From: Verrucomicrobiota bacterium
GTDB taxonomy: Bacteria > Verrucomicrobiota > Kiritimatiellia > RFP12 > UBA1067
Assembly: GCA_023269675.1 (NCBI GenBank)
Contig: JAHFSX010000033.1
Location: 3,841 to 67,840 of the forward strand
Reading direction: 5' to 3'
Length of the DNA stretch: 64,000 nucleotides
How positions within the stretch are numbered: the stretch's first letter is position 1; each line of letters starts with the position of its first letter. The notes under the pieces are model-generated. The model worked only from the letters and a program-made list of their open reading frames with translations. It was not told the DNA's origin and searched no databases. Shown piece by piece: positions 11,876 through 29,263 of this stretch. A program made the position numbers and the translations under genes.

Positions 11876-13225
11876 TTATTGAACCGGACGCACGACATAG
11901 GCATGCGCCACCGGCTGGCGTGCGGCAAAAAGCTGCTGCTCCAGCGCCGCCACCTTCGCCGTCACCTCGCCACGCTTCGGCCAACTCGTCAGATAATCGG
12001 CCACTTTGCCCTCGTAGAAACCGGTCTTGCTCATCTTCGTCTCCGCGAAAACCTTCACGGCGGCCAGGTCGTCGGGATTCACCTGACGGTGCTTGAGGAA
12101 CCAGCGCACCGCCGCGTAGTTGCGCAGCGCGCCCTCGGTCGCACGCCGCGTCTCGTTCAGCCGCGCCACCGCCTGCGCCTGCTTGTACTGCGGCGCGGCC
12201 GCATTGAAGGCGAGGTTGACGCCCGACGTCAACACCTCCGCGGTGTACCGGCCCACCGCCTCGCCGTCGATCAGCAGCTCGTACGCGCCGGACGCAAGCC
12301 CCGTCACCGCAACGGTCTCCTGATCCAGCTCGCGCTCGATCGGCAACAGCGCCAAAATCGGCTTCGCACCCTCGTCCACGGGAAACGGCAAGGCCTTCTC
12401 CAGCACGGTGAAACCCCACGCGCCCCCCGTCTTCGCGACCGCGGTCACCGTCGCGTTGGCGCTCTCCGTCACCCTTCCGGCCGAGGCGTCGAAAACGATC
12501 CGTGAGACCAGCGCGGGCGCGCCCTGCGCCTTGAGGAACAGCCACGCCATCATCAGGTACCCCGGCGCGCCCGGATGCACGCGGTCCGGCCCGACGATCG
12601 TGTAGGCCGGGTCAGCCTTCTGCCGCTCGAGATTGAACGCCGTCATGGGGCCGTGAAAATCCACCACCGTCGCGCCATTTTTTGCGGCCAGCGCCTTCAC
12701 GACCTCCGCGCACCGGCCCAGACCGTCGTTGCAGCCGGGCTGGTTGTTGGTCCGGTCGTTGACCCCGGTCTGATCGAACGGCGAGGGCGTGATAAACAGC
12801 AGACGCGGCTCCCCCGCCTCGCTGCGGATACGCCCCGCCAGCAGCTCCATGTTCTTCCGGTAAGCGTCCAGCGCCCCCTGCTGCGCCGCCTTCTTCTGAG
12901 CGTCGGGATCAGCCACATAGCTGCCGCGGTTCACGTCGTTCATGCCGAACATCACCGCCACCGAGGTCGGCTTCCGCTCGGTCACATCCTCGGCCAGTCG
13001 CCCCTGCGCGCCGCCCGCCGAATCCCCGGAGACGCCCGCGTTGACGAAACGGACGGTCCGCTCGGGAAAACGCGTCAGATAATAGTCGTAGACGAAGCTG
13101 TGGAAGCGGCCGCCGTGCGTGATGCTGTCGCCGAGAAAAACAACGGTCTCGCCGTCCTTGAACACGTCCCCGCACGCCAGTTGCGCCAGGATCAACAGCG
13201 AGACAAAAAAAGACCCTCTTTTCAT
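11876..13225 (-). CDS. Secreted SGNH/GDSL hydrolase
   Basis: FLGDSIT, NAGVSGD, FGMND, DRVHP: all four blocks present. Start at MKRGSFF. Confidence 0.92.
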   Translation of the reverse strand: MKRGSFFVSLLILAQLACGDVFKDGETVVFLGDSITHGGRFHSFVYDYYLTRFPERTVRFVNAGVSGDSAGGAQGRLAEDVTERKPTSVAVMFGMNDVNRGSYVADPDAQKKAAQQGALDAYRKNMELLAGRIRSEAGEPRLLFITPSPFDQTGVNDRTNNQPGCNDGLGRCAEVVKALAAKNGATVVDFHGPMTAFNLERQKADPAYTIVGPDRVHPGAPGYLMMAWLFLKAQGAPALVSRIVFDASAGRVTESANATVTAVAKTGGAWGFTVLEKALPFPVDEGAKPILALLPIERELDQETVAVTGLASGAYELLIDGEAVGRYTAEVLTSGVNLAFNAAAPQYKQAQAVARLNETRRATEGALRNYAAVRWFLKHRQVNPDDLAAVKVFAETKMSKTGFYEGKVADYLTSWPKRGEVTAKVAALEQQLFAARQPVAHAYVVRPVQ

Positions 13226-13347
13226 ACGTGAACTCCCCCGGTGGGACGGACGCTTCCGCGCCGCCAAACAGCCTTCAAAAATCGATTTTTCATTTTGCCA
13301 CGTTATCCTGCCCCGGTCGATACCAAAGGAGGAACAATCTCGAGGGC

Positions 13348-13626
13348 GGGGTGATTCAACTTTGTTTGAATCCACACCCGAAGGAGGCGTTAGAATTTCG
13401 GAGTTGGGAGTTGCAATACCATGAAAGTGAACGTGTTCGCGCGATGCGCGCGAGGCCGTGTTTGTGATTTCAAAATGAAGTCACACGTGGGGCTCCAAAA
13501 TACGGTTCCTCGCGGAAAGGCTCATCCTTGTCAAACGCCTCTTTTCACGGCCTTTTTGCGCTACCAACGCCTAACTCCTAAATTATCCTTGGTGCGCCTC
13601 AGTTTCAACGAAACTGAATCGCACCC
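13348..13626. mobile_element. Non-autonomous ~280-bp MITE-like element, copy 1
   Basis: Imperfect terminal inverted repeats GGGGTGATTCA...TGAATCGCACCC; direct repeat CTCGAGGGC at 13339-13347 and 13627-13635; homologous to 28207-28492. Confidence 0.8.
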
Positions 13627-13666
13627 CTCGAGGGCGCGCCGATGCCGCTCGCCACGGGAGCCCGAC

Positions 13667-14188
13667 TTATAACCGATACCCCACCGTGAACATGAATATA
13701 TCCATTCCGTCGTTAGGCTCTTCGATCGACCCGTTGGAATAGTGCATATACCGGATATTGAAATCGACCGTCTTCATCCTGACGCCGACCCCGGCCCGGT
13801 CTTCAAACTGAAAGCGGGTCGAAAAATCACGACCTCCGATATCACTTTCGGAAAGATACGCGGCCCCGATGCCGGCCTCGATGTAGGGATGGACGGCATC
13901 AGCCGGGTCTCCAAAGAAGTAGATGAATACGGGCGAAAAGGCGCCGCCGTACACCTCGTCGCCGCCGTGTTTCCAATCCGACAGGGAGGCTTCGCAATAC
14001 AACGACAGCCAACCGACGTCGCTGGGGAACATGCGCAAGGTCGAATCCTTTTGCACGCCCAAACGATAGACGTCGATCCCATCGCAGGCTTGCCCCGCGC
14101 CCAAAGTAATGGCGCTGAGGAGGGGTTCGCCCTCGGCGCAACCATAAAATCCGGCTAGGCAGACACAGGCCAGATAGTATATTTTCAT
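13667..14188 (-). CDS. pagL: Lipid A 3-O-deacylase (acyloxyacyl hydrolase, PagL family)
   Basis: PYIEAGIG, FQFED, catalytic HYSNG...PNDG, beta-barrel C-terminus VGYRL. Confidence 0.88.
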   Translation of the reverse strand: MKIYYLACVCLAGFYGCAEGEPLLSAITLGAGQACDGIDVYRLGVQKDSTLRMFPSDVGWLSLYCEASLSDWKHGGDEVYGGAFSPVFIYFFGDPADAVHPYIEAGIGAAYLSESDIGGRDFSTRFQFEDRAGVGVRMKTVDFNIRYMHYSNGSIEEPNDGMDIFMFTVGYRL

Positions 14189-14267
14189 GCTTACCCTCTT
14201 TCAATACACAGAACACAAGCTACAATAAACTCTATCTTTTGTATGTAAACAGAATTTTACGCGGGCG

Positions 14268-17200
14268 TCAAGTTTCTATTTCCGCAGCCACATCCGGATC
14301 GGGTATCCTCGCGAGGTCATCCTTGATCTTCCGGCTCTGGGATTTGTCCGACTGGCCGACCACCAGATAAACGGCCGGAATAAAGTAGAGCGACAGCAGC
14401 GACGAAACCAGGATGCCGCCGACGGAGCCGATGCCGATGCTGGCCCGCAGTTCGGAGCCCAGGCCCGTACCGGTCGCCATCGGCAACATGCCGAACAGCG
14501 CCGCCACGCACGACATGAGGATCGGTCGGAACTTCCGCTCCGACGCCATCATCAGCGCATCGCGCTTGTGGAACCCCTGGGTACGCCGCAGCGTGTTCAC
14601 CTCGTCGATGATCAGGATCGCCGCGTTGACCACCACCCCCACCAGCATGATGCCCGCCAACAGGCCGAAGATGGAAAGGGTCGAGCCGGAGTGGTAGATC
14701 GCCATGTACAGGCCGAGGTAGCTGAACGGCACGGTCAGCAGAATGATGAACGGCTGCGTCCAGGACTCCATCATCGCGGCCAGCAGCAGGTAGGTGAGCA
14801 AGATGGCCACGATCGTAACCAGCTTGAACTCGGTGAACGCCTCCGCCATTTTTTCGGCCATGCCTGAAAAGGTCATCCGGTACCCGGCGGGCAGCAGTTT
14901 CTTCAGAGTTCCCGCTTCGTGCGCCATGGCCGTGCCCATGCCGAACCCCTTGGCCGCGTTCGCGTAAAGGGTCACTGACCGGGTCTTCTCGAACCGGATG
15001 ATCTGCGTGGGCTGAAGGCGGTCAGCCACGTCGGCCACCGCACTGATCAACACGGGGCGCCCGTCCGGTCCCGGCAGATTCAGCCTCTCGATCTGGTCGC
15101 GGCCCGACTCTTGCGCGTAACGCACCCGGATGTCATACGAGCGGTCCCCCTTCTTGTAGGTCGAAGTCTTGATTCCCGCAATGTCCGCCCGCAACGTGAG
15201 GCCGAGGTCGGAAGCCGAGAGGTTCATGTCGTGCAGCACCGCGCGCTTAGGGCTGATGCGCACTTCGGGCCGCCCCGGCCGCACGGAATGGGTCACGTCC
15301 GTGCTGGCGGGATCCGCGCGCATCTGCGCCACCGCCGCGATGCCGATCCGGTTCAGTTCGTCCAGGTCGGACCCGCTGACCATGATGACGATGTCTTGCG
15401 ACGCGCCGCCGCCCGCCGCGCTCGGGATCATCACCGACCAGATGCAGTCGGGCTCGTTGACCAGTCCACGCCGGACGCGCTGCATGATCGTTTTGATGTT
15501 GTCCGTCGTCCGCTCGACCTTGGACGACAAGCGGATGCTGATCTGGGCCAGATAGGTGCCCTCCGCCACCTGCCCGATGACGCCCTGCACCTTGCCGCAC
15601 GCCACCGTCACATGCCTGACCGCCGGATCATTGCCGATCCGCGCGGCGACCTCCTGCGCACGCGCGGCCGTCTGCTCGAGGTTGAAGTCGGCGGGGTACT
15701 CCAGCCGAACGGACAGGTCTCCCATGTCGGCCTGCGACACGAAGTCCATCTGCACGCGCGGCGCGTAATAATACAAACCCCACCCGCAGACCAGGGCGGT
15801 GACGGCGACAAACAGGACGGACACGTTCAACACCCCGTGCAGCGAACGCACGTAACCCCGCTCGATCGCCCGGTAGACCACGTTCCAGGGCGTGAGCAGC
15901 CAACCCAGGAACCGGTTGACCGTGTGGCCGTACGCGTAGGTCTGCACCGCCAAGATCGGCGTGAGCGTAAAGCTGATCAGCAACGAGGCGAAGGTCGCCG
16001 CCGTCACCGTCACCGCGAACGGCGCGAGAAACTGCCCGGTGACGGTCTGCATCGACGCGATCGGCAGGAAAACCACGATGTTGGTGAGGGCGCTGGCTGC
16101 CACCGCCAAGCCGACCTGCGAAGCGGCGCGCTCGACAACCGGCCCGACTTCGAAGGCCTCCCCCTTGCGCGTTTCAAACACGTGTGCGATGTTCTCAAGC
16201 ACCACGATCGAGTTCGCCACGAGAATGCCCACCGAGATGCCGAAAGCGCTCATGGTGATCACGTTCATCGTGTATCCGAACCACGTGAAGGTCATCAACG
16301 CGATCACCATCGTGACCGGTATGCTCACGAACGCGATAAAGGCGGTGCGGATGTCCGCCAAAAAAAGCAGCAGCACGAGGCCCGTGAGAATCACGCCGTC
16401 GCGGATGCTGTTCAGGCCCTCCCGCACCGTGGCCTTCACGAAGTCGCCATCGTCGCGGAACCACACCAACTCCATGCCGCCGGGCAGATGGCCCCTCACC
16501 GCGTCAAAGGCTTTCCGCACGCGGTCCACCACGGCCACCGCGTTGGCCTCCCCCTTTTTGGTGACTTTCAGAATCACGCACGGCTCGCCGTCGTAAAAAG
16601 CTTTGCTTTTCGGCCGTTCCGTGCCGAACCTGAACGTGGCCACGTCGCGCAGATAAACCCGCTCGCCGTTGACGACGCCGATCTGAATCTCCCCCAAATC
16701 CGGGATCTCCTCAGCCTCGGCATCAAACATCAGAGAGATCTCGCGCTGGCCGTCGTCGATCTGCCCCACCGGCACCTTGAGGTTTTCCCGGCCGAGAGCG
16801 GCCACGATCTGGCCGAGCGCAAGTCCCCTGACGACCAGCAGCCTGCGATCCACCTCCACGATCACTTCACGCTCTTGCCCGCCGATGAGTTCCACCTTCG
16901 CCACGCCGCCCAAGGCTGAAAAACGGTCGGCCAGCGTGTCTTCCGCGTAGTCGTAGAGCTCATCGATCGGCAAGGTGCCCTTCAGCGCGACGGTCACCAC
17001 CGGCGTGGCGTTGATGTCGAATTTCAGGATCTGCGGCTCTTCGGCCTCGTCCGGCAGATCTTCCCGGATCAGATCCACTTTCTCGCGCACGTCCGTAGCC
17101 GCCACATCCACGTTGCGCTTCAGCTCGAATTCGATCAGGACCTGGCAGAAATTGTTCAGGCAGGTGGTGGTCAGATGCTTGATGCCATCCACCTGCACCA

Positions 17201-17411
17201 CCGCATCCTCGATCTTCTTGGCGACCGTGGTCTCGATCTCGTCCGGCGACGCGCCCGGGTAGACGACCGTGATCGTCACATAGGGCACATCGACCTGCGG
17301 CAACAAATCCACGCCGATGTTGCGGTACGCCAAGATGCCGAAAATCATCAGGCAGAGGATCAGCGTCGTCATGGCGATCGGACGCCGGATGGAAGCTTTT
17401 GCTAAAAACAT
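14268..17411 (-). CDS. RND efflux permease (AcrB/MdtB family)
   Basis: 1047 aa; SIRRPI start, GILVANSIVVLENI, FRPILM, GVVVNAAIL motifs. Confidence 0.95.
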   Translation of the reverse strand: MFLAKASIRRPIAMTTLILCLMIFGILAYRNIGVDLLPQVDVPYVTITVVYPGASPDEIETTVAKKIEDAVVQVDGIKHLTTTCLNNFCQVLIEFELKRNVDVAATDVREKVDLIREDLPDEAEEPQILKFDINATPVVTVALKGTLPIDELYDYAEDTLADRFSALGGVAKVELIGGQEREVIVEVDRRLLVVRGLALGQIVAALGRENLKVPVGQIDDGQREISLMFDAEAEEIPDLGEIQIGVVNGERVYLRDVATFRFGTERPKSKAFYDGEPCVILKVTKKGEANAVAVVDRVRKAFDAVRGHLPGGMELVWFRDDGDFVKATVREGLNSIRDGVILTGLVLLLFLADIRTAFIAFVSIPVTMVIALMTFTWFGYTMNVITMSAFGISVGILVANSIVVLENIAHVFETRKGEAFEVGPVVERAASQVGLAVAASALTNIVVFLPIASMQTVTGQFLAPFAVTVTAATFASLLISFTLTPILAVQTYAYGHTVNRFLGWLLTPWNVVYRAIERGYVRSLHGVLNVSVLFVAVTALVCGWGLYYYAPRVQMDFVSQADMGDLSVRLEYPADFNLEQTAARAQEVAARIGNDPAVRHVTVACGKVQGVIGQVAEGTYLAQISIRLSSKVERTTDNIKTIMQRVRRGLVNEPDCIWSVMIPSAAGGGASQDIVIMVSGSDLDELNRIGIAAVAQMRADPASTDVTHSVRPGRPEVRISPKRAVLHDMNLSASDLGLTLRADIAGIKTSTYKKGDRSYDIRVRYAQESGRDQIERLNLPGPDGRPVLISAVADVADRLQPTQIIRFEKTRSVTLYANAAKGFGMGTAMAHEAGTLKKLLPAGYRMTFSGMAEKMAEAFTEFKLVTIVAILLTYLLLAAMMESWTQPFIILLTVPFSYLGLYMAIYHSGSTLSIFGLLAGIMLVGVVVNAAILIIDEVNTLRRTQGFHKRDALMMASERKFRPILMSCVAALFGMLPMATGTGLGSELRASIGIGSVGGILVSSLLSLYFIPAVYLVVGQSDKSQSRKIKDDLARIPDPDVAAEIET

Positions 17412-17493
17412 GGCTACCTCACACGTGCGACTGGAAACTCAAAAATGGACAATCGAAAGCGCATCGGGCGGTCCCTCGTCACCAGTTTCGGGT

Positions 17494-18657
17494 CTACAAT
17501 TTCCGGGGCCCTTCTTTCAAAACCCGGACGCCGTCACCTTCGTTCAACAGCAGCATGCCGTCCGTCACGATGTCCGCCTCCTTGAGCGTCTCGGGATTCC
17601 TGACCTCCGTGCGCCCCTGCCACTCGAGACCGATGTCCACCGGAACGCCGACCACCGTCCCGTCCCGCACCACGAACACCAGATGCTTGCCGCCGCGCAA
17701 TCCGACCGCCTGGGACGGCACCGCTGCAGCCATGTACTGGCGAAAAAGCACACGCGCATCGCGGATCATGCCCGGCGCCATGTCCGGCGCGTGTTCGACC
17801 GTCGTGCGGATCTCGAACGTCCGCGTCACCGGATGCACCGAAGGGGCCTTATACGTGACCGCAACCTCTTTTCCGTTCTCGAAACGCAGCAGGGTCTTGC
17901 CGGCTTCGACCCGATCGTAGTGTTCGGCGTTCATGGTGAAACTCACTTCATAAACGGTCGGGTCATCCATCTCGAACACCGGCGTGCCCGCATTGACGTA
18001 CTCGCCCCTGTCCTTGAGTTTCCGGGTGATGACCCCCCCGAACGGGGCCACGCCCTGCGAGTCGCCCAGATTCTTCTGCGCCACCGACTGCGCGGTCTCG
18101 GCCTGCTCGATGCGCACGCGGGCGGTTTCGACCGCGGCCAGCACGCGCTGCACGTGCGCGCCCGCGGCTGTGTGCTGAAGCTCGGCCTTCTCCAGCGTAT
18201 CTTTCGTCACCGCCTTGTCCTTCTCGTAGAGCGTCTGCATGCGCGTGACATCGATCAGGGCCTTATCGTAAGCGGCCTGCGCCTCCGCCCGCGCGGCTTC
18301 AGCCTCTTTGAATGCCGCCCGCGCCACGTTCAGATCGTCCTGCGCCAGCCGCACCCGGTTCTCGAGATTGATCTTGTCCACCTGGAACAGCGGCTGTCCG
18401 GCCCGCACCGTCAGACCTTCATCGGCCTGCAACGCATCGATGGTGCCGGACACACGCGCGGCCACAGCCGCAGAGTATTTTGTGCGGACCGTCCCCTGCA
18501 CGCCGACGCCGTCCGTGAACGCAAAGGACGGCGTCAACCGGCCCACTTTCACCAGAGGACGCATATCCGCGGACACCGCCTGCGTTTCCGCTTTTTTGCA
18601 ACCGCAGACGGCCGCCCATGCGGCCAGCACACCCACCGTCAAGACCGATTTTTTCAT
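17494..18657 (-). CDS. RND membrane fusion (periplasmic adaptor) lipoprotein
   Basis: Lipobox AVCG-C, ARVSGTI...GQPLFQVD lipoyl motif, coiled hairpin, APFGGVI. Confidence 0.92.
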   Translation of the reverse strand: MKKSVLTVGVLAAWAAVCGCKKAETQAVSADMRPLVKVGRLTPSFAFTDGVGVQGTVRTKYSAAVAARVSGTIDALQADEGLTVRAGQPLFQVDKINLENRVRLAQDDLNVARAAFKEAEAARAEAQAAYDKALIDVTRMQTLYEKDKAVTKDTLEKAELQHTAAGAHVQRVLAAVETARVRIEQAETAQSVAQKNLGDSQGVAPFGGVITRKLKDRGEYVNAGTPVFEMDDPTVYEVSFTMNAEHYDRVEAGKTLLRFENGKEVAVTYKAPSVHPVTRTFEIRTTVEHAPDMAPGMIRDARVLFRQYMAAAVPSQAVGLRGGKHLVFVVRDGTVVGVPVDIGLEWQGRTEVRNPETLKEADIVTDGMLLLNEGDGVRVLKEGPRKL

Positions 18658-18667
18658 AGCCGTCCTC

Positions 18668-20182
18668 TCACTTCGAACCGCGGAGCAAACCGCCGAAAAC
18701 ACGCTCCCTGCCCGAATCCTCGGCAGCCTGCCGCTCCATAACCCGCTCCGCATGCAGGCCGGCTCCGGCCGCATCGCGCAACACGATCTCGGCCAGCGCG
18801 GCGGCGTATTCTGCGGTTACCGCCTGGACGCGCGCAGCCTCCATCAGCGCCAGCCTGTCGAGCACGTCGGAGAGCGTCTCCTGAGCCTGCTCATACCGCG
18901 CCTTGGTCTCGGCGTAATCCATCTCGGCCGCTTTGCGCGCCTGCGCCGCCACCGCACGCTGCTCGTCCGCGCGGCACCAGTTCTGATACGCCTCGTAGGT
19001 GGACACCACAAGCGCCAGCGCGCGGTCCTCCTGCAGCTGGAACTCCGCCGCGCGCCGCGCCTTCGCCTCGCGGTACGCGTTCACCGTCAGGAAGCCGTTG
19101 AACAGGGATAGCGTCGCGTTCAGCCCACCCGCCCAGTACTGACTGGGCGACTGCAAAATCTCGGAGGTGTAGTTTCCGGAGGCGGACCCGTAGAGCGTGG
19201 GCAGGAAGCCCGTCAAAGCCCGCAGGACCTCCGTTTTACGGATCTCGATCATCTGATCCCCCGCCCACAGTTCTTTGCGGTTGACCAGGGTCTGCCACAA
19301 CCACTCCTCGGCGGTGAGCGTCCGAACCTGCGCGCGCGCGACACGCTGCGCGCCGCCGTCCTCGGCCGTCAAAACCCAGTCGCGCGCCAACACGCCGAGC
19401 ATCGACGCGCCCTCCAGCGGCACCTGCTCCGTAGGCCAGAACCGCAGGATCTCAAAGAGCTTCGCCCGCGTCAGCGCCAAGTTGTCATTCGCGAGCCGCA
19501 CGTTGTAGCGGTCCGACAGGAGCCGCGCCTGCGCCCGCTCGCGTTGCGCCGCCAGGACGTAGCCCTCGCGCGCGAGCGCCACGGTCTGGTCAACCAGCAC
19601 CCGGGTCGCCTCTTGCTGCCGCTCGTAGGTCCGCAGCAGGCTCTCGGCCACGGCCGCCTGATAGAACAGGGCGGCCACCTGCACGTCGAGCAACTCGCCG
19701 GCCCGCGCGCGCACCAGTTCCTGGGCGCGCACCGCATGCTTGGATTCGACAAACAACAGCCACGCGCCTGGCGTGAAGATCGGCTGGGTCAACGCGATCG
19801 ACGCCTCGCTCACATATTTGCTGCTCATCTGAACCGATTGGGCGCCGAACGACCGCATGAGCGGCACGTCGGTTCCGCTCCGCGTGAAGGTCGCCTCCAC
19901 CTGCGGCAGGAAAGCGGAGAAGGCCGTCGCACGCTGAATCTTCGCCAGCTGCAGGTCCAGCTGCGCCTGCGTCAGCTTCAAGGTGCGCGCGCGCGCCAAC
20001 TCCAGCGAAAACGCCAAGGTCAGGGGCCCGCTGTTCGTCTCAAAAAACGCGCGCGTCTCCTCCTGCAGCGAAGCGCGGAACTGCACGGCGCCTCGCGCGC
20101 GCTCCTCGAAGCCGGGCATCCGGCACCCGCCCAGCACCAGCGGCAGAACGGCCAGGGCGACGACTCTCACAGCAGGTCTCAT
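18668..20182 (-). CDS. TolC-family outer membrane efflux lipoprotein
   Basis: Lipobox VLGG-C, AFLPQV...LTQPIF and FLPTL...LSLFNG OEP repeats; operon context. Confidence 0.88.
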   Translation of the reverse strand: MRPAVRVVALAVLPLVLGGCRMPGFEERARGAVQFRASLQEETRAFFETNSGPLTLAFSLELARARTLKLTQAQLDLQLAKIQRATAFSAFLPQVEATFTRSGTDVPLMRSFGAQSVQMSSKYVSEASIALTQPIFTPGAWLLFVESKHAVRAQELVRARAGELLDVQVAALFYQAAVAESLLRTYERQQEATRVLVDQTVALAREGYVLAAQRERAQARLLSDRYNVRLANDNLALTRAKLFEILRFWPTEQVPLEGASMLGVLARDWVLTAEDGGAQRVARAQVRTLTAEEWLWQTLVNRKELWAGDQMIEIRKTEVLRALTGFLPTLYGSASGNYTSEILQSPSQYWAGGLNATLSLFNGFLTVNAYREAKARRAAEFQLQEDRALALVVSTYEAYQNWCRADEQRAVAAQARKAAEMDYAETKARYEQAQETLSDVLDRLALMEAARVQAVTAEYAAALAEIVLRDAAGAGLHAERVMERQAAEDSGRERVFGGLLRGSK

Positions 20183-20307
20183 AAACGCTTTTGCCCTTTC
20201 TACCCAGCACGCGCGTGTGCCGACGGCCTCTTCCGGAAACGGGGACCGGCGCGCCTCGGTCGGCCCGACGGTCCGGCGCCTCCCCGGGCTGCATCCGCCA
20301 CACCGGC

Positions 20308-20973
20308 CTAATCGACCGTCCGCTGAAAAGACAACCGGCAGAAGATCCCGCCGCAAATATGGTCGGCCACCTTGTCCAGCCAAACTTCCATATCCAGTTG
20401 CGGCGGGCAAAAGCGCGTGGCCCAGCCAGGCTTGGCGATCGCATAGACAACGGACTGCGCATGCACCGTGCTGCACCAGAGACTGACCTGCACCGGATCG
20501 TCATCAGGCAGCGCCATGCGGATCAGCCGCATGAAACAGCGGCGCATCGGAATCGCGAATTTCTGTTCGATGTCCTGCGCCATGTCCGACGGCACGCACT
20601 CCTCCATGCCCATCAACCGCGCCATCCAGAACTCCGGCGGCTTGAGCGCCGCGCAAATCGCCAGCGACCTGCGGACCCACATCCGCATCGCCGCTCTCCA
20701 GGTCTTATCGTCGCGCACCGTGTCGGGAATCGACATCATCGGTTTGGCGACATCCTCGAACAGCGCGCCGATCACCGCCTTGTAGAGTTCGGCTTTCGAA
20801 CGGAAATAGTAATTCACCAGGGCCACGTTCACCTGCGCCTCCGAGCAGATCATGCGCGTGGTCGCGTCTTTATAGCCGTGCTCCGCGAAGACTTTGGTGG
20901 CGGCCTGCAGGATCTTATCCTGCGTGTTCTTCGGATTCGCATCCGCCTTCTTGACCCGTGGTTTCGTTTTCAT
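20308..20973 (-). CDS. TetR-family regulator (CecR/DUF1956-type C-terminus)
   Basis: HTH ILQAATKVFAEHGYKDATTRMICSEAQVNVALVNYYFRSKAELY. Confidence 0.9.
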   Translation of the reverse strand: MKTKPRVKKADANPKNTQDKILQAATKVFAEHGYKDATTRMICSEAQVNVALVNYYFRSKAELYKAVIGALFEDVAKPMMSIPDTVRDDKTWRAAMRMWVRRSLAICAALKPPEFWMARLMGMEECVPSDMAQDIEQKFAIPMRRCFMRLIRMALPDDDPVQVSLWCSTVHAQSVVYAIAKPGWATRFCPPQLDMEVWLDKVADHICGGIFCRLSFQRTVD

Positions 20974-20980
20974 AGGCGCC

Positions 20981-20999
20981 TCATGTATTAAACACATGA
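20981..20999. promoter_or_regulatory. Palindromic putative TetR operator
   Basis: TCATGTATTAAACACATGA near-perfect inverted repeat just upstream of the TetR start, in an AT-rich patch. Confidence 0.55.
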
Positions 21000-21145
21000 T
21001 TAAAATATGCGCTCGAGCCCAGGAAGTCAAAACAAAACGCGGCGCAAACCATGGTGAGGAAACTGGAACCCACAGGCGCTGCCGAAGCCGGGTCCTGTTT
21101 GCGGCAGCACGCCAACCCGCGACGCGCCCGCGCACGCAGGACGGA

Positions 21146-22765
21146 TCAGCTCAACAGATAGGCCACAAGGGTTGCGACGGTACAGTACAGGACCGTCGGC
21201 AAGACATTCATCAGAATGATCCGTCCCTCCTCGCCATTGACTCCGGTGGTTGTGCAGACCGCCACCACATTGTTGATACACGTCATGTTCCCGATCGCAC
21301 CCCCGACGGATTGAAGGGCGACCACCAGAACCGGGCTAAGGGCCAGCAGGTTCGCCGTGTCGAACTGCAACGCGGCAAAAAGGGTGTTTGAAACCGTGTT
21401 TGATCCGGAGACGAAGGCGCCGAGAACACCGATGTAGGGCGAGACAAACAAATAGCCCGTCCCGAAGGCGCTTCTCAGCGACAGGGCAATCTCATTGAGC
21501 ATGCTCCCCTGGCCGGATGCATTCACGTTCGAATAACGCATCAGCTGGACCAGGGCGACACCGGTCGTCAAAGCGACCACCGCATTCTTAAGCGATTTCG
21601 CGGTCGAAAGCCACGTGGCCCCGACTTCCTTTCCGGTCAACTTAAAGTGAAAAGCCGATCCCAGCGCGACGAGCATAAACACGAGCCCCGGATTGTTCAG
21701 GTATTTCCATGCCCAATTGAGGTGCTCGACCCCCATGATGTTGGTTACGCCCACCGTGATGCCCGTCACAGCCGCCTTGACGCCGAGCTGCGGGATGCGG
21801 GTGACGATCAACGTGAGCGCAATGACGACATACGGCATCCAAGCCGCCACCAAACCGATGTTGCCAGACCGGCCACTCCGCACCGCCGACGGCGCGGCAC
21901 CCGCGCCGTCGGCATCAAACCCCCAGACCTTTTTCGGAACAAGAAAACCGGCTTTCACCGCCGGCACGGTCACCGCCAGCCCGATGGCCGCGCCGAGCAG
22001 CGACGGCAGTTCCGGCCCGGCGAAGCGCGCAATTAAATAATAAGGGACGGTGAATGCCAGGCCCGAAAAAAAGGCAAACGGCAAGATCTCGAGCGCCGGC
22101 TTGAACGAAAACGGCTTCTTGCCTCTGAAGAACAGCGTCATCATGAGAACCGCGACAAACGGCATCCATGTTCCGGCGACGCCGTGAATGATGGCGGTCG
22201 TCAAGGTCAGCGCGTCTTTAAACGCGTCCGGCGCCAGATGGTTGGCCTCAAGCGATTTCTCCAGCACCGCGACGGCTGTCAGGGTCGGTGTCCCGACTGC
22301 CCCAAAACTCACCGGCGTGCTGTTGCAGATCAGCGCTACGGTCGCCGCCGCGACCGCGGGAAAACCAAGCCCCACCAGCAGCGGGGCCGCAAGCGCGGCG
22401 GGCGTGCCAAAGCCGGCGGCGCCTTCAATGAACGCGCCAAACAGCCAGGCGATGATGATGACTTGTATCCTGCGGTCTTTCGTAACCCCCGAAAATCCGT
22501 CACTGATGACCGCAATCGTACCGGCCCGCTGAAGCGTATTGAGCAGAATGATCGCCCCGAAAATAACGAGCAGGATATCGAGGGTGGACAGGCATCCGAG
22601 CATGGAATAAGCCGCGATATGGAGCACGTCCATCTTCCAGACGGTCAGACAGAGAACGACGGCAAGCCCCCAGGAAAAAAGCAACGCTCGGCCGGACGGT
22701 TGCTTCGCGATGAGCATCAGCGTCAACGCAATAATAATGGGCGAAAGCGCCAAAAACGTGTGCAT
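21146..22765 (-). CDS. lctP: L-lactate permease
   Basis: [37 protein letters not shown] motifs. Confidence 0.92.
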
Positions 22766-22817
22766 TTAAAACCTTTCGGCAGTCGCCCCGCTTCATGAAC
22801 GCGCGCCGGCTTTGAGC

Positions 22818-23756
22818 TCAGAGGGCTTCGCACCCCACGCCGCGCCGGAGGACGGCGACGCGCTTGAGGTCCAGGTCGGCCGGCGTCAAGCTCTCGACAT
22901 TGGCGCTGCCGCACGCCAGCCCGTAACGCACCGCCTCGCGCAACGGCTTGCCGGTGAGCACCGCATGGACAATACCCGCCGTCGTGCAATCGCCGCTGCC
23001 GATGGGGTTCACGTGCCGCGCGACCGGCGGGGGCGCGAAACGCCAGCCCCGCTTCGGCGTGACCAGATACGCGGGTTTGGCGCCGTGCGTGACAAAGACG
23101 TTCTGCGCCCCCATGGCCTGCAAATCCCGCATGCCGCGCAGAATGCTTTTCTCGCTAGTCATCGGCTCCCGCAAGGTGGCCGCCAGCTCACGCACCGTGA
23201 GCTTGGCCAGCAGCGGGCGCTCGAAAAGCACGTTGACCAAGGCCTCCTTCTGCGAGTCGATCACGACCGGCACGTCCGCCTCGGCCGCCGCCCGCACGAA
23301 GCCCACATAGAAATCGTCACCGGCGTAGGGCGGCAGCGTCCCGCTGATGACCAGCATCGCCGCCGCGCGCGTCCGCTTGAGATTGTCCCGCACAAACCGC
23401 GCCACGGCCGCGCGTCCGGGCTCGCGCGCCTCCTCGACCAGCTCGGTCACCGTGCCGGAGGCCGCAACGATCAGCGTGGAGCAGATGCGCGTGCCAGCCT
23501 GCATCGGGGTCAGGGCCGACTCCACGCCGTACGCCTTCAAATAGCCGGCAATCTTGCGCCCGGTCTGCCCGCCGTTAAAGCCCGCGGTCTGCGCCGGGGT
23601 CCCCAACGTCACCAGCGCGCGGGCGGTGTTCAGCGCCTTGCCCGCCGCCGACTCCACAACCTGCCGCGCCCGGTTGACCTCGTCGATCTCCAGGCCCTCA
23701 AACACCAGCGTGCGCTGCAGCGCGGGCGTCAGCCCCAGACACAAAACTTTTTTCAT
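22818..23756 (-). CDS. 1-phosphofructokinase/LacC-type PfkB sugar kinase
   Basis: AGKALNTARAL, ISGTLP, NPIGSGD. Confidence 0.88.
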   Translation of the reverse strand: MKKVLCLGLTPALQRTLVFEGLEIDEVNRARQVVESAAGKALNTARALVTLGTPAQTAGFNGGQTGRKIAGYLKAYGVESALTPMQAGTRICSTLIVAASGTVTELVEEAREPGRAAVARFVRDNLKRTRAAAMLVISGTLPPYAGDDFYVGFVRAAAEADVPVVIDSQKEALVNVLFERPLLAKLTVRELAATLREPMTSEKSILRGMRDLQAMGAQNVFVTHGAKPAYLVTPKRGWRFAPPPVARHVNPIGSGDCTTAGIVHAVLTGKPLREAVRYGLACGSANVESLTPADLDLKRVAVLRRGVGCEAL

Positions 23757-23848
23757 ACGTTCACTCCTGTTCCGGTCAGCCTCGTCACGCCCGGGGACGG
23801 GCGCGGCGCATGAGAATGGGCCCAGCGCATCCCTGCGCAGGGAAGGCG

Positions 23849-24487
23849 TTACACAAAGCCGTTCTCGGCCAGCATCTGCTCGGTGATGCTGCGCCGCTCG
23901 CCCGCACCCAGCAGCCGCGCCACGTATTTCCCGAGGAGATCGCCTTCGAGATTCAGCGCGTCGCCGGCCTTGCGGTCACCCAGACTCGTCTCCCGAAGGG
24001 TGTGCGGTATCAGGTTCACTTCGATCCAGTCGTCGCCCAATCCCGACACGGTCAGGCTCACTCCGTCGATCGTGACAGAACCCTTCAGCACCGTCTGCCG
24101 GGCAAGCTCCGGCGAGCAGGTCACCCGCCACACGAAATCGCGCCCGCGCTCCCCGACCGATGCCAGCGTCCCGGTCTCATCCACATGCCCGCTGACCATG
24201 TGCCCGCCCAGACGGTCACCCAAAGCCAAGGCGCGCTCGAGGTTCAGCCGCGCGCCTTCGCGGGCCTGACGCAACGCGGTGCACCGCAAGGTTTCGTCCA
24301 ACAGGTCCGCCGTGAAAAAGCCGTCGCTGACCGCCGTCACGGTCAGGCACGCGCCCTCCACGGCCACGCTCTCGCCCAGCACCAGCGCATCCGGCCACGG
24401 CGTATGCGCCAGTGTCAGCGACCAGCCGCCCTGGCCCTGCGCCAGCCGCTTCAACACGCCCACTTTTTGCACGAGTCCCGTAAACAT
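23849..24487 (-). CDS. ribE: Riboflavin synthase (alpha chain)
   Basis: MFTGLV start, GACLT, NLERAL, GGHMVSGHVD, GVSLT. Confidence 0.96.
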   Translation of the reverse strand: MFTGLVQKVGVLKRLAQGQGGWSLTLAHTPWPDALVLGESVAVEGACLTVTAVSDGFFTADLLDETLRCTALRQAREGARLNLERALALGDRLGGHMVSGHVDETGTLASVGERGRDFVWRVTCSPELARQTVLKGSVTIDGVSLTVSGLGDDWIEVNLIPHTLRETSLGDRKAGDALNLEGDLLGKYVARLLGAGERRSITEQMLAENGFV

Positions 24488-24491
24488 TTTC

Positions 24492-25592
24492 TCACGCTTT
24501 CCGCACGCGCATCATCACGTCTTCGCCGAACCGCTTGAGCTCGACACAGCGCAGGCGCGGCATTTTACCCAGCAGAAAACCCTGCCCTGCCACGCTGCTG
24601 ACAGCCCGCACATCGCCCAAAACCGCAGGCGCGTAAAAGAGACAGTATTCGTCAACCAGCCCCGCGTCGTTCAAACCGCCCACCAGCCGCCCGCCGCCTT
24701 CGCACAGCACCTGCAGATAGCCCGCGTCGCCCAGCTTCTTCAAAACCCGCCTCAGCGGCACGCGCCCCGTTTTATCCGGCGCGAACGTCCATACCTGCGC
24801 GCCGTGTTTCGACCAGGCCGCCGCCTTTTTCGCGGCCGCCGCCGGCGTCGTCGCCACAATCGTCCGCGCCGCCGCGTCATCGGTATAGACCTGCGCCTGG
24901 GCCGGGGTCCGTCCCGCGGCGTCCACAATCACGCGCATCAGCTGGCCGCCGCCCGGCAGACGGCACAGGAGCGAGGGGTCATCCGCGCACACGGTTCCTG
25001 CCCCCACAAGCATCACGTCCGCGCGCCGGCGCATCCGCTGCACCTCGGCGCGCGCGGCCGCCCCGGTGATCCACTTCGCACGGCAGGTGCGGTCGGCGAT
25101 GCGCCCGTCCAGCGTCAGGGCGAGCTTGACCGTCACGAAGGGATAGCCGGTCACAATGTGCTTGGTGAAGGGCCGCACGAGATCAACGGCCTCGGCCTCG
25201 CACACGCCGCAAACCACCTCGACGCCCTGCTTCATCAACAAATCCAAACCGCGGCCGCTATGCCGGCCGTTGGCATCCCGGCAGCCAACGACGACACGGC
25301 CGATCCCGTCGCGCACGATGCGGTCTGTGCAGGGCGGCGTGCGTCCCGTCGTGCAACAGGGCTCCAGCGTCACATACAGCGTGGCGCCCGCAACCGGTGC
25401 GCGGCAGGCGTTCAGCGCCTCGACTTCCGCGTGCGCGCCGCCCGCGCACAGGTGGCGGCCCTCGCCGAGCTTGCGCCCGCCGCCGACCACCACGGCGCCG
25501 ACGGGCGGATTGGGCCGCGTGTGTCCCTCGCTCAAGCGCGCCAGCGCGATCGCCCGCCGCATCCACTTCCTGTCTTCCGCCGCTAGCGTCAT
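24492..25592 (-). CDS. ribD: Diaminohydroxyphosphoribosylaminopyrimidine deaminase/reductase
   Basis: PNPPVGAV, HAE, TLEPC, TLDGRIA, EGGG. Confidence 0.96.
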   Translation of the reverse strand: MTLAAEDRKWMRRAIALARLSEGHTRPNPPVGAVVVGGGRKLGEGRHLCAGGAHAEVEALNACRAPVAGATLYVTLEPCCTTGRTPPCTDRIVRDGIGRVVVGCRDANGRHSGRGLDLLMKQGVEVVCGVCEAEAVDLVRPFTKHIVTGYPFVTVKLALTLDGRIADRTCRAKWITGAAARAEVQRMRRRADVMLVGAGTVCADDPSLLCRLPGGGQLMRVIVDAAGRTPAQAQVYTDDAAARTIVATTPAAAAKKAAAWSKHGAQVWTFAPDKTGRVPLRRVLKKLGDAGYLQVLCEGGGRLVGGLNDAGLVDEYCLFYAPAVLGDVRAVSSVAGQGFLLGKMPRLRCVELKRFGEDVMMRVRKA

Positions 25593-25606
25593 TGTGCCCT
25601 GCCGTC

Positions 25607-26098
25607 CTACGTCCGCTTGATCTCTTTGTTCAGCCGGTCGAGCACGCCGTTCACGAAACGGCCCGCATCGGCGTTACTGAAATACTTGGCGAGGTCGATC
25701 GCCTCGTTCAACACCACCGCCGGCGGCACATCGGTGCAGTAAATCATTTCAAAGAACGCCAGCCGCAAGACGTTACGCTCCACCGATCCCATGCGGTGCA
25801 ACGGCCAGTTCTGCGTGTAGGACTGCACCTTCGCGTCCAGTTCCGGCAAGTGCCCGAGCACCCCCCGCACCAGCTTCTCGGTGAAAATCCGGATCTTCGG
25901 AGGCGCCACGCGGTCTTCCACCGACTTGGCCTCATCCGACACGACCGCCGTATCCTTGGCCTCCGCATCCTCCATCTGGCAGGTCCACTGCTGACGCCAG
26001 AACTTCGGGATGGCCATATCGATGTCCAACCCGGGATTCAGGTCCGCCTGAAACAGCATTTGCAGCGCCCATTCGCGCCCTTGTCTGCGAGTCGCCAT
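25607..26098 (-). CDS. nusB: Transcription antitermination factor NusB
   Basis: RRQGREWALQMLFQ, ERNVLRLA, NEAIDLAK, FVNGVLD. Confidence 0.95.
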   Translation of the reverse strand: MATRRQGREWALQMLFQADLNPGLDIDMAIPKFWRQQWTCQMEDAEAKDTAVVSDEAKSVEDRVAPPKIRIFTEKLVRGVLGHLPELDAKVQSYTQNWPLHRMGSVERNVLRLAFFEMIYCTDVPPAVVLNEAIDLAKYFSNADAGRFVNGVLDRLNKEIKRT

Positions 26099-26219
26099 GC
26101 TTCGTATTCCTTCTTTGAACAAAACCTCATATGGGAAAGCCGGAATCCAGGTTTCGGCGGAATGCCGACGGTGACTTGCACCCGACTGACCTCTGGAGTC
26201 CGTCCTCTCCGGCGACCGC

Positions 26220-26681
26220 TCAGATCGCCTTGAGCACAGCGACCGTTTCGATCGCGGACATCACCGCGTCCCAGCCCTTGTTGCCCTGCTTGGTGCCCGC
26301 GCGTTCGATCGCCTGCTCCAGATTCTGCGCGCAAACAATGCCGTTCAAGACCGGCACCTGCGTGTCCAGCGCGATCTTCGACAACGCCCGCGCCACCGTC
26401 CCGTTGATCAGGTCGGCATGCGGGGTCGCGCCCTGGATCACCGCGCCCAACGCCACCACGGCATCGACCTTGCCCGAGGCCGCCAGCTTCTGCGCAACCT
26501 GCGGAATCTCATTCGCGCCCGGCACACGCACCAGCGTCAGGTCGCCATCCTTGCCGCCGTGCCGCACAAAACAGTCCGCCGCGCCCTTCACCAACTGCTC
26601 GGTGAAGAAACTGTTGAAGCGGCTCACCACGATGGCCATCTTCATCCCCGTCGCATCCAGATTTCCAGCGATCTCTTTCAT
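26220..26681 (-). CDS. ribH: 6,7-dimethyl-8-ribityllumazine synthase
   Basis: VSRFN, VPGANEIP, IQGATPH, GNKGWDA. Confidence 0.96.
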   Translation of the reverse strand: MKEIAGNLDATGMKMAIVVSRFNSFFTEQLVKGAADCFVRHGGKDGDLTLVRVPGANEIPQVAQKLAASGKVDAVVALGAVIQGATPHADLINGTVARALSKIALDTQVPVLNGIVCAQNLEQAIERAGTKQGNKGWDAVMSAIETVAVLKAI

Positions 26682-26735
26682 CTCATGTCTCCTCTCGCTT
26701 ATGCCGAATCCTATTTCCCGACTTCCTACTTCCAC

Positions 26736-27944
26736 TTAAATCAAATGACCCATCTTGGTCTTCTTGGTCTCCAGGTAGCGGCGGTTGAAATCGCCCGGCT
26801 CAAACATGACCGGCACGCGCTCGACGATTTCCAAGCCGTACCCTTGCAGGCCGACCAGCTTCTTGGGGTTGTTCGTCATCAGCCGGATGCGCTTAAGTCC
26901 GATATCCGCGAGAATCTGCGCACCCACGCCGTAATCGCGCATGTCCGCCGGGAAGCCCAGCTTGATGTTGGCCTCGACGGTGTCCAGGCCGCCCTCCTGC
27001 AATTTGTAGGCGTGCAGCTTGTTGGCGAGGCCGATGCCGCGCCCCTCCTGACGCATATAGAGGATCACGCCGCACCCCTCCTTCTCCACCATGCGCATGG
27101 CCGCGTGCAGCTGGTTGCCGCAGTCGCAGCGCGCCGAGCCGAACACGTCGCCCGTGAGGCATTCGCTGTGGACGCGCACCAAAGGCGCCGGACACTCGGT
27201 CACGTTGCCTTTGATCAGCGCCAGATGGTCCATGCCGTCGGGGGACGACGTGTAGAGCCGCAATTTGAAATGCCCGTACGAGGTCGGCAGCTCAACCTCC
27301 TCGATGAAGTCGATCAGCCGTTCGCGCCGCCGCCGGTATTGGATCAGGTCGGCGATCGACAGCATCTTGAGGCCGTGTTGCGTGGCGAAGGCCCGCAGGT
27401 CAGGCAGCCGCGCCATCGTGCCGTCCGCCAGCATGATCTCGCAGATCACGCCCGCCGGCTTGAGCGCCGCCAGCTTGGCGAGATCCACCGCCGCCTCGGT
27501 ATGGCCGGCGCGCACCAGCACCCCGCCCTCGCGCGCCTCCAGCGGGAAGATGTGCCCAGGGCTCACGACAGAGTGGGGTCCCGAAGCCTCGTCGATCAGC
27601 ACCTGCACCGTGTGCGCGCGGTCGGCCGCGCTGATGCCGGTGCTCACGCCCTCGGCCGCGTCCACCGAATGGGTGAAGGCCGTCGCGAACTTGTCGCCGC
27701 GGTTGCGGCTCGGGGCGCGCTCCACGCCGACCTGCCGCAGACGCGCACCCGTCATCGGCACGCAGACCAGCCCGCGCGCGTTCATGACCATGAAGTTGAT
27801 CGCCTCGGGGGTCACCTTCTCCGCCGCGATGATCAGATCACCCTCGTTCTCGCGGCTCTCGTCATCCGCGACGATCACCATCTGCCCCTGCCGGAACGCC
27901 TCCACGCACGTTTCCACGGGATCGAACACCGATTCAGTTTCCAT
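26736..27944 (-). CDS. ribBA: Bifunctional DHBP synthase / GTP cyclohydrolase II
   Basis: DDESRENEGD, RAGHTEA, RVHSECLTGD...RCDCG, QEGRGIGL. Confidence 0.97.
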   Translation of the reverse strand: METESVFDPVETCVEAFRQGQMVIVADDESRENEGDLIIAAEKVTPEAINFMVMNARGLVCVPMTGARLRQVGVERAPSRNRGDKFATAFTHSVDAAEGVSTGISAADRAHTVQVLIDEASGPHSVVSPGHIFPLEAREGGVLVRAGHTEAAVDLAKLAALKPAGVICEIMLADGTMARLPDLRAFATQHGLKMLSIADLIQYRRRRERLIDFIEEVELPTSYGHFKLRLYTSSPDGMDHLALIKGNVTECPAPLVRVHSECLTGDVFGSARCDCGNQLHAAMRMVEKEGCGVILYMRQEGRGIGLANKLHAYKLQEGGLDTVEANIKLGFPADMRDYGVGAQILADIGLKRIRLMTNNPKKLVGLQGYGLEIVERVPVMFEPGDFNRRYLETKKTKMGHLI

Positions 27945-27955
27945 ACCTGTTCCCC

Positions 27956-27988
27956 AAAACAAAAACCCCGGCCAAAGCGGAGCCGGGG
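27956..27988 (-). terminator. Intrinsic terminator (riboswitch expression platform)
   Basis: Minus strand CCCCGGC-TCCGCTTTG-GCCGGGG followed by TTTTTGTTTT, between the aptamer and ribBA. Confidence 0.85.
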
Positions 27989-28007
27989 CAATGCAAAACA
28001 CGCAACC

Positions 28008-28148
28008 GCATCTTCTAACATCCAGACTGTACTGTCGGCCACGGAATCGAACCGTGTCAGTGGCAGGCAGGAACAGCTTGCCAGTCGCGGGCTTTACCGC
28101 CGGTCAGGAATTTCCCGCTCGCGCAGGATCACCTTGCCCCGAAGACGC
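28008..28148 (-). ncRNA. FMN riboswitch (RFN element)
   Basis: Minus strand GUCUUCGGGGCAAGGUGA...AAUUCCUGACCGGCGGUAAAGCCCGCGA...CUGACACGGUUCGAUUCCGUGGCCGACAGUACAGUCUGGAUG..AGAAGAU matches the RFN consensus; upstream of the rib operon. Confidence 0.95.
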
Positions 28149-28161
28149 ATGAATGAGAGAC

Positions 28162-28190
28162 AGTTTAGTGCTTTCTGACCGGATTGGCAA
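28162..28190 (-). promoter_or_regulatory. Sigma70-type promoter of the rib operon
   Basis: Minus strand TTGCCA (28190-28185), 17-bp spacer, TAAACT (28167-28162), ~14 nt upstream of the riboswitch P1. Confidence 0.7.
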
Positions 28191-28206
28191 GCCGCCATCC
28201 GGCACG

Positions 28207-28492
28207 GGGTGCGATTCAACTTTGTTGAATCCGCACCCGAAGGAGGAGTTAGGATTTAGGAGTTAGGAGTTGCAATGCCCTGAAAGTGAACGCGCTCGCG
28301 CGATGCACAAGAGTCCGTGTTCGTGTCTTCAAAATGAAGTCACGCGCATGGCTCCAAGAAACGGTTCTTCGCGGAGGGGTTCCTCCTAGTCTTACGCCCG
28401 GTTCTCAAGGTTTTGTGAGCTTCCAACTCCTAAATCCTAACTCCTAAATTCTCCTTGGCGCGACTCAGTTTCACCGAAACTGAATCGCACCC
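28207..28492. mobile_element. Non-autonomous ~280-bp MITE-like element, copy 2
   Basis: Perfect 12-bp TIR GGGTGCGATTCA...TGAATCGCACCC; direct repeat TCCGGCACG at 28198-28206 and 28493-28501. Confidence 0.85.
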
Positions 28493-28600
28493 TCCGGCAC
28501 GGCGAAGCGCAAAATGAAATGCGCCCTTTTGAAAAACGGGGAGTCTGCGGGAGTGCCGCTCGCGCGGACGACCTCAGGCAGGACACGGCAACCGCGTCTT

Positions 28601-29242: not shown

Positions 29243-29263
29243 GGCTTCGACCTTGCTCCTCTC

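Follow-up and report, generated by a model that had tools for sequence, protein, structure and literature searches.

The two stretches of DNA at positions 13348-13626 and 28207-28492 of the window are very probably copies of one 286-bp non-autonomous DDE transposon, a MITE, which is moved in trans by an ISKra4-like clade of insertion sequences (IS) and which inserts upstream of promoters. The window is the whole 64-kb stretch that was analysed (positions 3841-67840 of contig C22 of assembly G000). The assembly, a Kiritimatiellia-type MAG, comprises 6.33 Mb in 85 contigs, has 64.8% G+C and is 94.8% complete.

The two copies in the window

The first-pass annotation had noted a full-length homology of roughly 80% between the two copies, a different exact 9-bp direct repeat around each of them, and a common end with inverted termini. 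All of this is borne out. BLAST yields 81.0% identity over 289 columns (13348-13626 versus 28207-28492), and in a MAFFT alignment which includes the flanks the homology ends exactly at the direct repeats. Copy 1 is flanked by CTCGAGGGC at 13339-13347 and again at 13627-13635, copy 2 by TCCGGCACG at 28198-28206 and again at 28493-28501. Both copies terminate in ...CTGAATCGCACCC and begin with the inverted complement of that end, i.e., GGGGTGATTCAA in copy 1, which is one base short, and GGGTGCGATTCAA in copy 2. Both are therefore bounded by inverted ends, GGGTG...CACCC. The features are:

13339-13347, no strand: left target-site duplication of copy 1, 9 bp, CTCGAGGGC, identical to 13627-13635
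13348-13626, plus strand: MITE copy 1, 279 bp (G000:C22:17188-17466)
13348-13379, plus strand: left terminal palindrome of copy 1, the inverted-repeat tip and its inverted copy, slightly decayed
13591-13626, plus strand: right terminal palindrome of copy 1, ending in CTGAATCGCACCC
13627-13635, no strand: right target-site duplication of copy 1, 9 bp
28198-28206, no strand: left target-site duplication of copy 2, 9 bp, TCCGGCACG
28207-28492, plus strand: MITE copy 2, 286 bp, the modal length of the family
28207-28238, plus strand: left terminal palindrome of copy 2, GGGTGCGATTCAAC-TTTG-TTGAATCCGCACCC
28239-28271, plus strand: GAAGGAGG, then subterminal heptamer repeats AGTTAGG/ATTTAGG of copy 2, mirrored at about 28422-28456
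28457-28492, plus strand: right terminal palindrome of copy 2
28493-28501, no strand: right target-site duplication of copy 2, 9 bp

BLAST finds only these two copies in the window. Each occupies the interval from the 3' end of one gene to the promoter of its neighbour, and each has a GDSL-lipase-like gene close by (11876-13225 and 28601-29242). On the minus strand near copy 1 are genes for a PagL-like lipid A deacylase (13667-14188) and an AcrB-type efflux pump (14268-17411).

The left end of the element is a 32-nt palindrome, GGGTG(Y)GATTCAAC-N4-GTTGAATC(C)RCACCC. Next inward follow GAAGGAGG and an AGGAGTT/AGGATTT heptamer array, which recurs in mirror image in the right arm. This arm closes in a second, different palindrome, ...CAGTTTCAACGAAACTGAATCGCACCC; the terminal palindromes of the two ends measure 32-36 nt. 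The end sequence of the MITE is GGGTGYGATTCAAC, and in the family consensus both tips have a bipartite motif in common, GGGTGYGATTCA-N5-GTTGA.

The family in the genome

A BLASTN search of the whole genome with both copies, as proposed in the first-pass annotation, retrieved 50 full-length copies in which the query is covered to within 8 bases of both ends. At E<=1e-3 the same search hits 158 loci, many of which represent the heptamer-repeat part only. Besides the full-length copies there are truncated and nested variants, spread over many contigs. The family consensus is 286 bp long and individual copies range from 221 to 293 bp, a length which leaves no room for a transposase; the element has no coding capacity. 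The two tips are slightly asymmetric: the left one reads GGGTGTG in 30 of the 50 copies, the right one, in reverse complement, GGGTGCG in 42.

The 9-bp duplications are not confined to the copies in the window. When the flanks of all 50 copies were tabulated in strict register, the 9-mers agreed at 9/9 positions in 24 copies, at 8/9 in nine and at 7/9 in five. Thus 38/50 copies match at 7/9 or better, as against 0.6% of shuffled left/right flank pairs. With a boundary slide of up to 3 bases the respective counts are 26, 11 and 6, a total of 43/50, and these are biased upward because the best register was chosen for each copy.

The insertion sites are mostly non-coding, since an ORF of at least 200 aa runs across the reconstructed site in 15/50 cases compared to 411/499 random positions. 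The orientation of adjacent ORFs, outward in 46/50 on one side and 43/50 on the other, is uninformative at 65% G+C. Pairwise identity among the 50 copies averages 83% (range 61.5-96.7%) and no two are identical. This is an older family without sign of recent activity. Many copies sit at contig ends; such elements break MAG assemblies.

At least nine MITE copies harbour, within the heptamer array, a module of about 150 bp which has a GATTAAG/CTTAATC heptamer hairpin of its own (G000:C65:7841-8279, C85:230385-230817, C36:62885-63335, C36:38075-38423, C1:46545-46781, C39:152006-152266, C42:7388-7633, C20:251676-251935 and C85:331397-331824). At the last locus it occupies the other arm and is reversed, which suggests that the module inserts independently into heptamer arrays. 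Another copy, C36:167705-168132, holds a different nested palindromic element of about 140 bp, GTAGGGACGCCTCCC...GGGAGGCGTCCCTAC. Further, AGGAGTT/AACTCCT arrays resembling those of the MITE stand alone at dozens of sites in G000, e.g., C10:652-719 and C39:172868-173094.

Conserved ends and divergent cores in related genomes

The MITE has ends that are common to an entire bacterial order, and cores that differ. The BLASTN comparison with relatives, likewise suggested at the outset, was carried out with copy 2. Matches are present in 17/41 related genomes, G000 included, and in 13/24 genomes of the same family. In the relatives the match is limited to the initial 66-78 bases and the terminal portion of copy 2; the core does not match. 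A scan for the terminal pattern with one genome per species returned at least 94 stretches, and nearly all of those listed are from MAGs labelled Kiritimatiellia/Kiritimatiellae or Lentisphaerae. Among the matches listed, the other MAGs have the same terminal palindrome; next to it come heptamers specific to the lineage (GAATCCA, GGTAGGA, CAGGGTT and others) and then cores that differ. At least nine of the elements in other MAGs, 220-289 bp in length, have exact 9-bp duplications, and at least four more have duplications matching at 8/9.

Across a sample of 401 genomes of the class the palindrome, with at most one mismatch, is present in 13, of which 10 belong to the order of the host. With 72 matches, G000 stands far above all the others. 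In the near-complete relative G006 the pattern scan gave 16 tip matches and no long pair.

In other MAGs we also observed solo terminal palindromes of 31-32 bp and one 55-bp two-palindrome element, each flanked by direct repeats: L038 (minus strand, at about 2131 from that end; 9/9), L064:302-333 (8/9), L022:3800-3830 (8/9) and L037:1231-1285 (8/9). The terminal palindrome alone may be a complete minimal transposon. The solo left-end palindromes of G000 are truncated copies without duplications, not mini-elements.

The probable mobilising transposase

That the window contains no transposase for the element had been stated from the start; this is correct, and it applies to the whole 94.8%-complete assembly as well. 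A tblastn search of G000 with a protein of the clade introduced below gave a best E of 0.19. The only ISKra4 trace in G000 is a decayed C-terminal scrap at C4:98889-99098 (E 1.3e-3) with at least one in-frame stop, and no MITE end adjoins it. Pairs of MITE ends 330-6000 bp apart were considered as boundaries of an autonomous element in G000; no pair was associated with a duplication or enclosed a transposase. The most promising pair, C85:185800-191254, and the region C82:93882-95892, which holds a solo end, enclose ordinary genes (a PATR-repeat protein, a GFO/IDH/MocA oxidoreductase, a UDP-GlcNAc 2-epimerase).

ISKra4-like transposases (NF033572) are frequent in the class, with 84/401 genomes at E<=1e-20 and 40/401 above the curated cut-off. 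Where the ends of the corresponding IS can be defined, the inverted repeats start with GGGTG or GGGCG, and exact 9-bp duplications flank several of these IS. One ISKra4-like clade, with members in the same genus, family and order, has the MITE ends, GGGTGTGATTCAA..GTTGA, together with a 9-bp duplication. The IS at G029:C1 (L176, 1168-3128) is 1961 bp long and present in four identical copies in its genome; its ends are (A/G)GGTGTGATTCAAAATAG(C/T)TGAT and its duplication is GCGTCAAAG (9/9). In G454 the left end reads GGGTGTGATTCAATCTTGTTGAT and the duplication AACCTGGGA (9/9). The right end of the IS in G466 is ...CTGAATCGCACCC, as in the MITE, with the duplication ACAACAATC (9/9). The agreement with the MITE tip extends over the first 13 of 14 bases in G029, where in addition base 1 of the left end is A instead of G, over 21/23 bases in G454 and over 13 bases at the right end in G466. 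Homologues of this partner clade are found in G008 of the same family (70-73% identity) and in G003 of the same genus (65%), the latter cut by a contig end.

The best NCBIfam match of the partner protein is ISKra4 (NF033572; E 3e-49, 168 bits versus a curated cut-off of 205 bits), the second ISLre2 (NF033529, E 1.5e-9); Pfam gives no match. Proteins above the NF033572 cut-off share 33-42% identity with the partner protein over 240-340 aa. Among the IS found, none has ends which match the MITE beyond about 13-22 bases, and the full terminal palindrome is absent from all of them. The ISKra4-like loci of G006 and G020 lack a literal MITE 14-mer; their ends share GGGTGTG only. A transposase of the ISKra4-like clade, acting in trans, is the likely agent which moves the MITE. 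The proposed search for a transposase bounded by MITE ends gave a clade with matching tips in relatives and none in the element's own assembly.

IS256, IS1 and ISKra4 had been named as candidate families. ISKra4 is supported by ends, duplication length and target preference; for IS1 and IS256 we obtained no support. It is very unlikely that some other DDE family (IS1, IS256, IS1595, the IS903 group) moves the MITE. These families have 8-9-bp duplications, and GGGTGTG ends would fit the IS1-type pattern GGnnnTG and the IS1016-type GGGgctg; moreover, the genome contains no cognate transposase by which the partner could be directly identified. Yet IS1 (PF03400) is present neither in the own genome (0/1) nor in MITE-rich relatives (0/5). 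IS256 (PF00872) is absent from the own genome and present in 9/61 genomes of the family, where 0/13 loci have MITE termini; IS1595 (PF12762) occurs in 7/61 genomes, with MITE termini at 0/10 loci. These counts cover IS1, IS256 and IS1595. The ISKra4-like clade, on the other hand, fits on ends, on duplication length and on target spacing.

A peculiarity of the partner IS concerns its reading frame. In all eight partner-clade copies examined a short upstream frame of about 110-130 aa ends in a run of 7-10 A residues (L176:1674-1690 in G029; same place in L195, L192, L194, L191, L196, L198 and L197). In six of the eight a TGA follows within a few bases, and in the two translated copies, L176 and L195, the catalytic part continues in the -1 frame. 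The A-run and this frame relation suggest that the partner transposase is made via programmed -1 frameshifting or transcriptional slippage.

Promoter targeting

The MITE and the IS have the same target preference, in that a sigma-70-type promoter lies next to the insertion with its -35 box starting exactly 27 bp away from the element end. A TTGACA hexamer (at least 5/6) starts at offset 27 from the left end in 10/50 copies and in 0-2 copies at every other offset, at a random genome rate of 0.27% per offset for such a match. When a -10 box 16-18 bp further on is included, the best promoter-like site is at offset 27 in 12/50 left and 2/50 right flanks. A looser class at offsets 14-18 comprises five left and four right flanks of the 50 copies. 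The promoter rule is a crude match to the sigma-70-type consensus, and the offset-27 pattern holds for 12-14 of the 50 copies only. The same offset stands out elsewhere. Among the matches listed from other MAGs, offset 27 is found at 9-10 of 95 palindrome ends and any other offset at two or fewer. Of 15 autonomous IS copies with defined ends four have offset 27, one 26 and one 28; two more are similar by eye.

Both window copies face promoter-like sequences:

28162-28190, minus strand: predicted sigma-70-type promoter near copy 2; -35 TTGCCA 28185-28190, 17-bp spacer, -10 TAAACT 28162-28167
28006-28150, minus strand: FMN riboswitch (context), RF00050, 94.1 bits, E 6.4e-21
26736-28001, minus strand: ribBA gene (context), DHBP synthase and GTP cyclohydrolase II, riboswitch-controlled
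13292-13320, minus strand: weak promoter-like site near copy 1, predicted; -35 TCGACC 13315-13320, 17-bp spacer, -10 CAAAAT 13292-13297

The left end of copy 2 is 16 bp from the -35 box of the predicted FMN-riboswitch/ribBA promoter, and this promoter call is supported by its position just upstream of the riboswitch. At copy 1 the weak -35 box starts 27 bp from the left end (score 8 of 12); the site faces the GDSL-lipase-like gene on the minus strand (11876-13225, Pfam).

At three loci of one MAG (L036, L072, L079) the interval from the element end to the -35 box includes tandem duplications of 13-16 bp, in one of which the 9-bp target occurs for a third time. Previous rounds of insertion and excision at the same promoter may have left these duplications as footprints.

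Empty sites and mobility

Empty sites with a single 9-mer, which the first-pass annotation had called for, were found in part. For another copy, G000:C6:15315-15587, contig C401 of the congener G003 aligns to both flanks, lacks the element and carries one diverged 9-mer. For the two window copies no clean empty site exists in the three congeners G001-G003, where the flanks at the orthologous sites are rearranged or non-homologous. At the C34 copies the orthologous flanks are likewise rearranged, again with no clean empty site.

The four congeners cease to be homologous about 7 bp upstream of the -35 box of the riboswitch promoter. Judged by this break within a few bases of one point, the spot upstream of the FMN-riboswitch promoter appears to be an insertion hot spot. 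The stretch of G002:C246 orthologous to window positions 28150-28210 (L227) is occupied by an inverted-repeat element unrelated to the MITE, about 160 bp long (CAGCAATTCTAAATTTGGC...) and accompanied by a 10-bp direct repeat; L228 (G001:C392) is the empty site of that element.

Of the public runs listed, one DNA run and no RNA run contain this stretch; the DNA run may be the sample from which the window itself was assembled. Its contigs show no joint skipping either element, and contigs cannot exclude rare alleles. In the same contigs the summed depth over the repeats is 293 and 584 versus about 17-19, and repeat-mediated joints are seen.

Folding of the element

As a single strand, copy 2 is predicted to fold into a left hairpin, a long stem and a right hairpin at -71.2 kcal/mol (z -8.06), and none of 200 shuffled sequences folds as well. 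In the left hairpin one base pair is switched between genomes, T-A in 17/22 cases in G000 and C-G in 12/14 in other MAGs. RNAalifold and covariation analysis of the 50-copy alignment gave no sensible consensus because of indels in the heptamer arrays. As to the proposed comparison with Rfam, no family matches either copy at E<=1 (window positions 12000-30000 searched).

Such a structure, the switched base pair and the fixed position relative to promoters could speak for a host-selected cis-regulatory or small-RNA module with a merely secondary mobile appearance. A few short RNA-library contigs, too, touch 28208-28278, though with 2-4 mismatches, and so they derive from other copies. We consider this explanation highly improbable. 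Neither copy has an Rfam match, and the alignment of 50 copies gave no usable consensus. The cores differ between genomes and only the transposase-type ends are conserved. The copies decay freely, down to 62% identity, with nested insertions and truncations. Further, autonomous IS copies show the same spacing, and the position therefore reflects targeting, not function.

Least probable of all, and next to negligible, is a REP/REPIN-like origin, in which a RAYT (Y1/HUH) transposase would recognise hairpins in single-stranded DNA and so spread a palindromic repeat: the 32-36-nt palindromes at both ends, the stable fold and three weak Y1_Tnp matches in G000 (E 5e-5 to 3e-4) would suit it, yet no element termini lie within 1.5 kb of these three loci, a GTAG-type 5' tag is missing, the ends match a DDE IS clade, and the 9-bp duplications of variable sequence are to our knowledge not a feature of HUH transposition (IS200/IS605, RAYT).

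Proposed mechanism

A DDE transposon moved in trans remains the preferred reading. The original proposal of mobilisation in trans agrees with the inverted ends, the duplication of fixed length and variable sequence, the many non-coding copies, the lack of an own transposase and the one empty site. Each MITE end carries the bipartite recognition sequence, GGGTG(Y)GATTCA-N5-GTTGA, of an ISKra4-like (p-MULT 4) IS clade. The trans-supplied transposase would bind both ends, excise or copy the element, possibly via a circular intermediate by analogy with its IS256/ISLre2 relatives, and insert it through a 9-bp staggered cut. The cut would be aimed at DNA just upstream of sigma-70-type promoters. With the 9-bp target placed 18 bp upstream of the -35 hexamer, this hexamer starts 27 bp from the element end. 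In a minor class the distance is one helical turn shorter (14-18 bp), and it is usually the left, palindromic end that points toward the promoter. Insertion just upstream of promoters would spare genes and core promoters. As the partner IS is absent from the assembly, the copies are presumably either immobile now or served by an unassembled IS. Mobilisation by the partner-clade transposase, its chemistry and any effect on expression are inferred; the anatomy, copy number, duplications, the empty site, the end identity with the IS clade and the target spacing are direct observations.

One may go further and posit that the 32-nt palindrome, i.e., two 14-bp ends back to back, is a complete minimal transposon, and that the whole superfamily is a promoter-homing system whose transposase reads a promoter-bound protein (sigma-70, or RNA polymerase upstream contacts) rather than DNA sequence. 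We regard this as a rather unlikely idea. If true, the cut would fall at 27 bp, one helical turn beyond the distance of 16 bp established for TnGBS, ISLre2 and ISKra4. The elements, tens of them in fixed register ahead of promoters, would then be portable upstream modules, e.g., insulators or spacers which displace activator sites, and would reshape transcription across the order.

A high-copy MITE family which inherits promoter-homing provides about 50 natural insertion sites within a single genome, and a much larger number over an order that is uncultured. They allow the targeting rule to be deduced, here a sharp 27-bp register plus a minor class about one helical turn closer. This geometry bears on the way in which such transposases locate promoters, still an unsolved problem in the case of TnGBS, ISLre2 and ISKra4. 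In addition, MITE copies mark likely promoters in a phylum without genetics.

Comparison with known systems

The classical bacterial MITEs are Correia/NEMIS of Neisseria, RUP of pneumococcus and Nezha of cyanobacteria. They derive from IS630, IS1106 and similar families and have TA or short duplications. The present family resembles them: it is short and non-coding, has inverted ends and a fixed duplication, occurs in tens of intergenic copies and has a partner IS in trans. We know of no classical bacterial MITE that targets promoters at a fixed spacing. From ISLre2-type (NF033529) elements the family differs in distance (published 15-17 bp versus a dominant MITE spacing of 27 bp) and in transposase family, NF033529 matching the partner only at E 1.5e-9; further, the elements of that comparison system are autonomous or conjugative, not MITEs.

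The closest comparison is with the ISKra4 group, which Guerillot et al. (2014; PMC3942029) defined as part of the p-MULT 4 Mutator-like transposases. According to that paper, the group has inverted repeats of 18-39 bp ending in C and direct repeats of 8-9 bp; 13 IS of the group are inserted 13-17 bp from predicted sigma-A promoters, and the orientation of insertion was proposed to depend on end dissymmetry. In its text a -1 frameshift is reported for the ISMich2 group only, and MITEs are mentioned 0 times. The likeness is considerable: the MITE ends begin with G and finish with C, the inverted repeats (18-39 bp) and direct repeats (8-9 bp) agree in size, insertion is upstream of promoters and orientation is biased. 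The best NCBIfam match of the partner transposase is ISKra4 itself. There are differences, too. The MITE of the window has no transposase. Its dominant spacing, 27 bp to the -35 box, exceeds the 13-17 bp stated in that text by about one helical turn. Its ends are extended into palindromes and then heptamer arrays. The partner clade is longer (1.9-2.0 kb, with a frame of about 580-630 aa), lies below the curated family cut-off and, unlike the group as described in that text, appears to need a -1 shift at the run of 7-10 A residues.

At the level of titles and opening lines of abstracts, the literature on ISKra4 together with MITEs and on insertion sequences of Kiritimatiell* consists of incidental co-mentions, and within this material there is no published record of MITE derivatives, of a 27-bp spacing or of a terminal palindrome. 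As kinds of element, MITEs and Mutator-like IS that target promoters are already known. What looks undescribed is the 27-bp register, the palindromic ends, possibly minimal transposons in themselves, and the combination of conserved ends with lineage-specific heptamers and cores.
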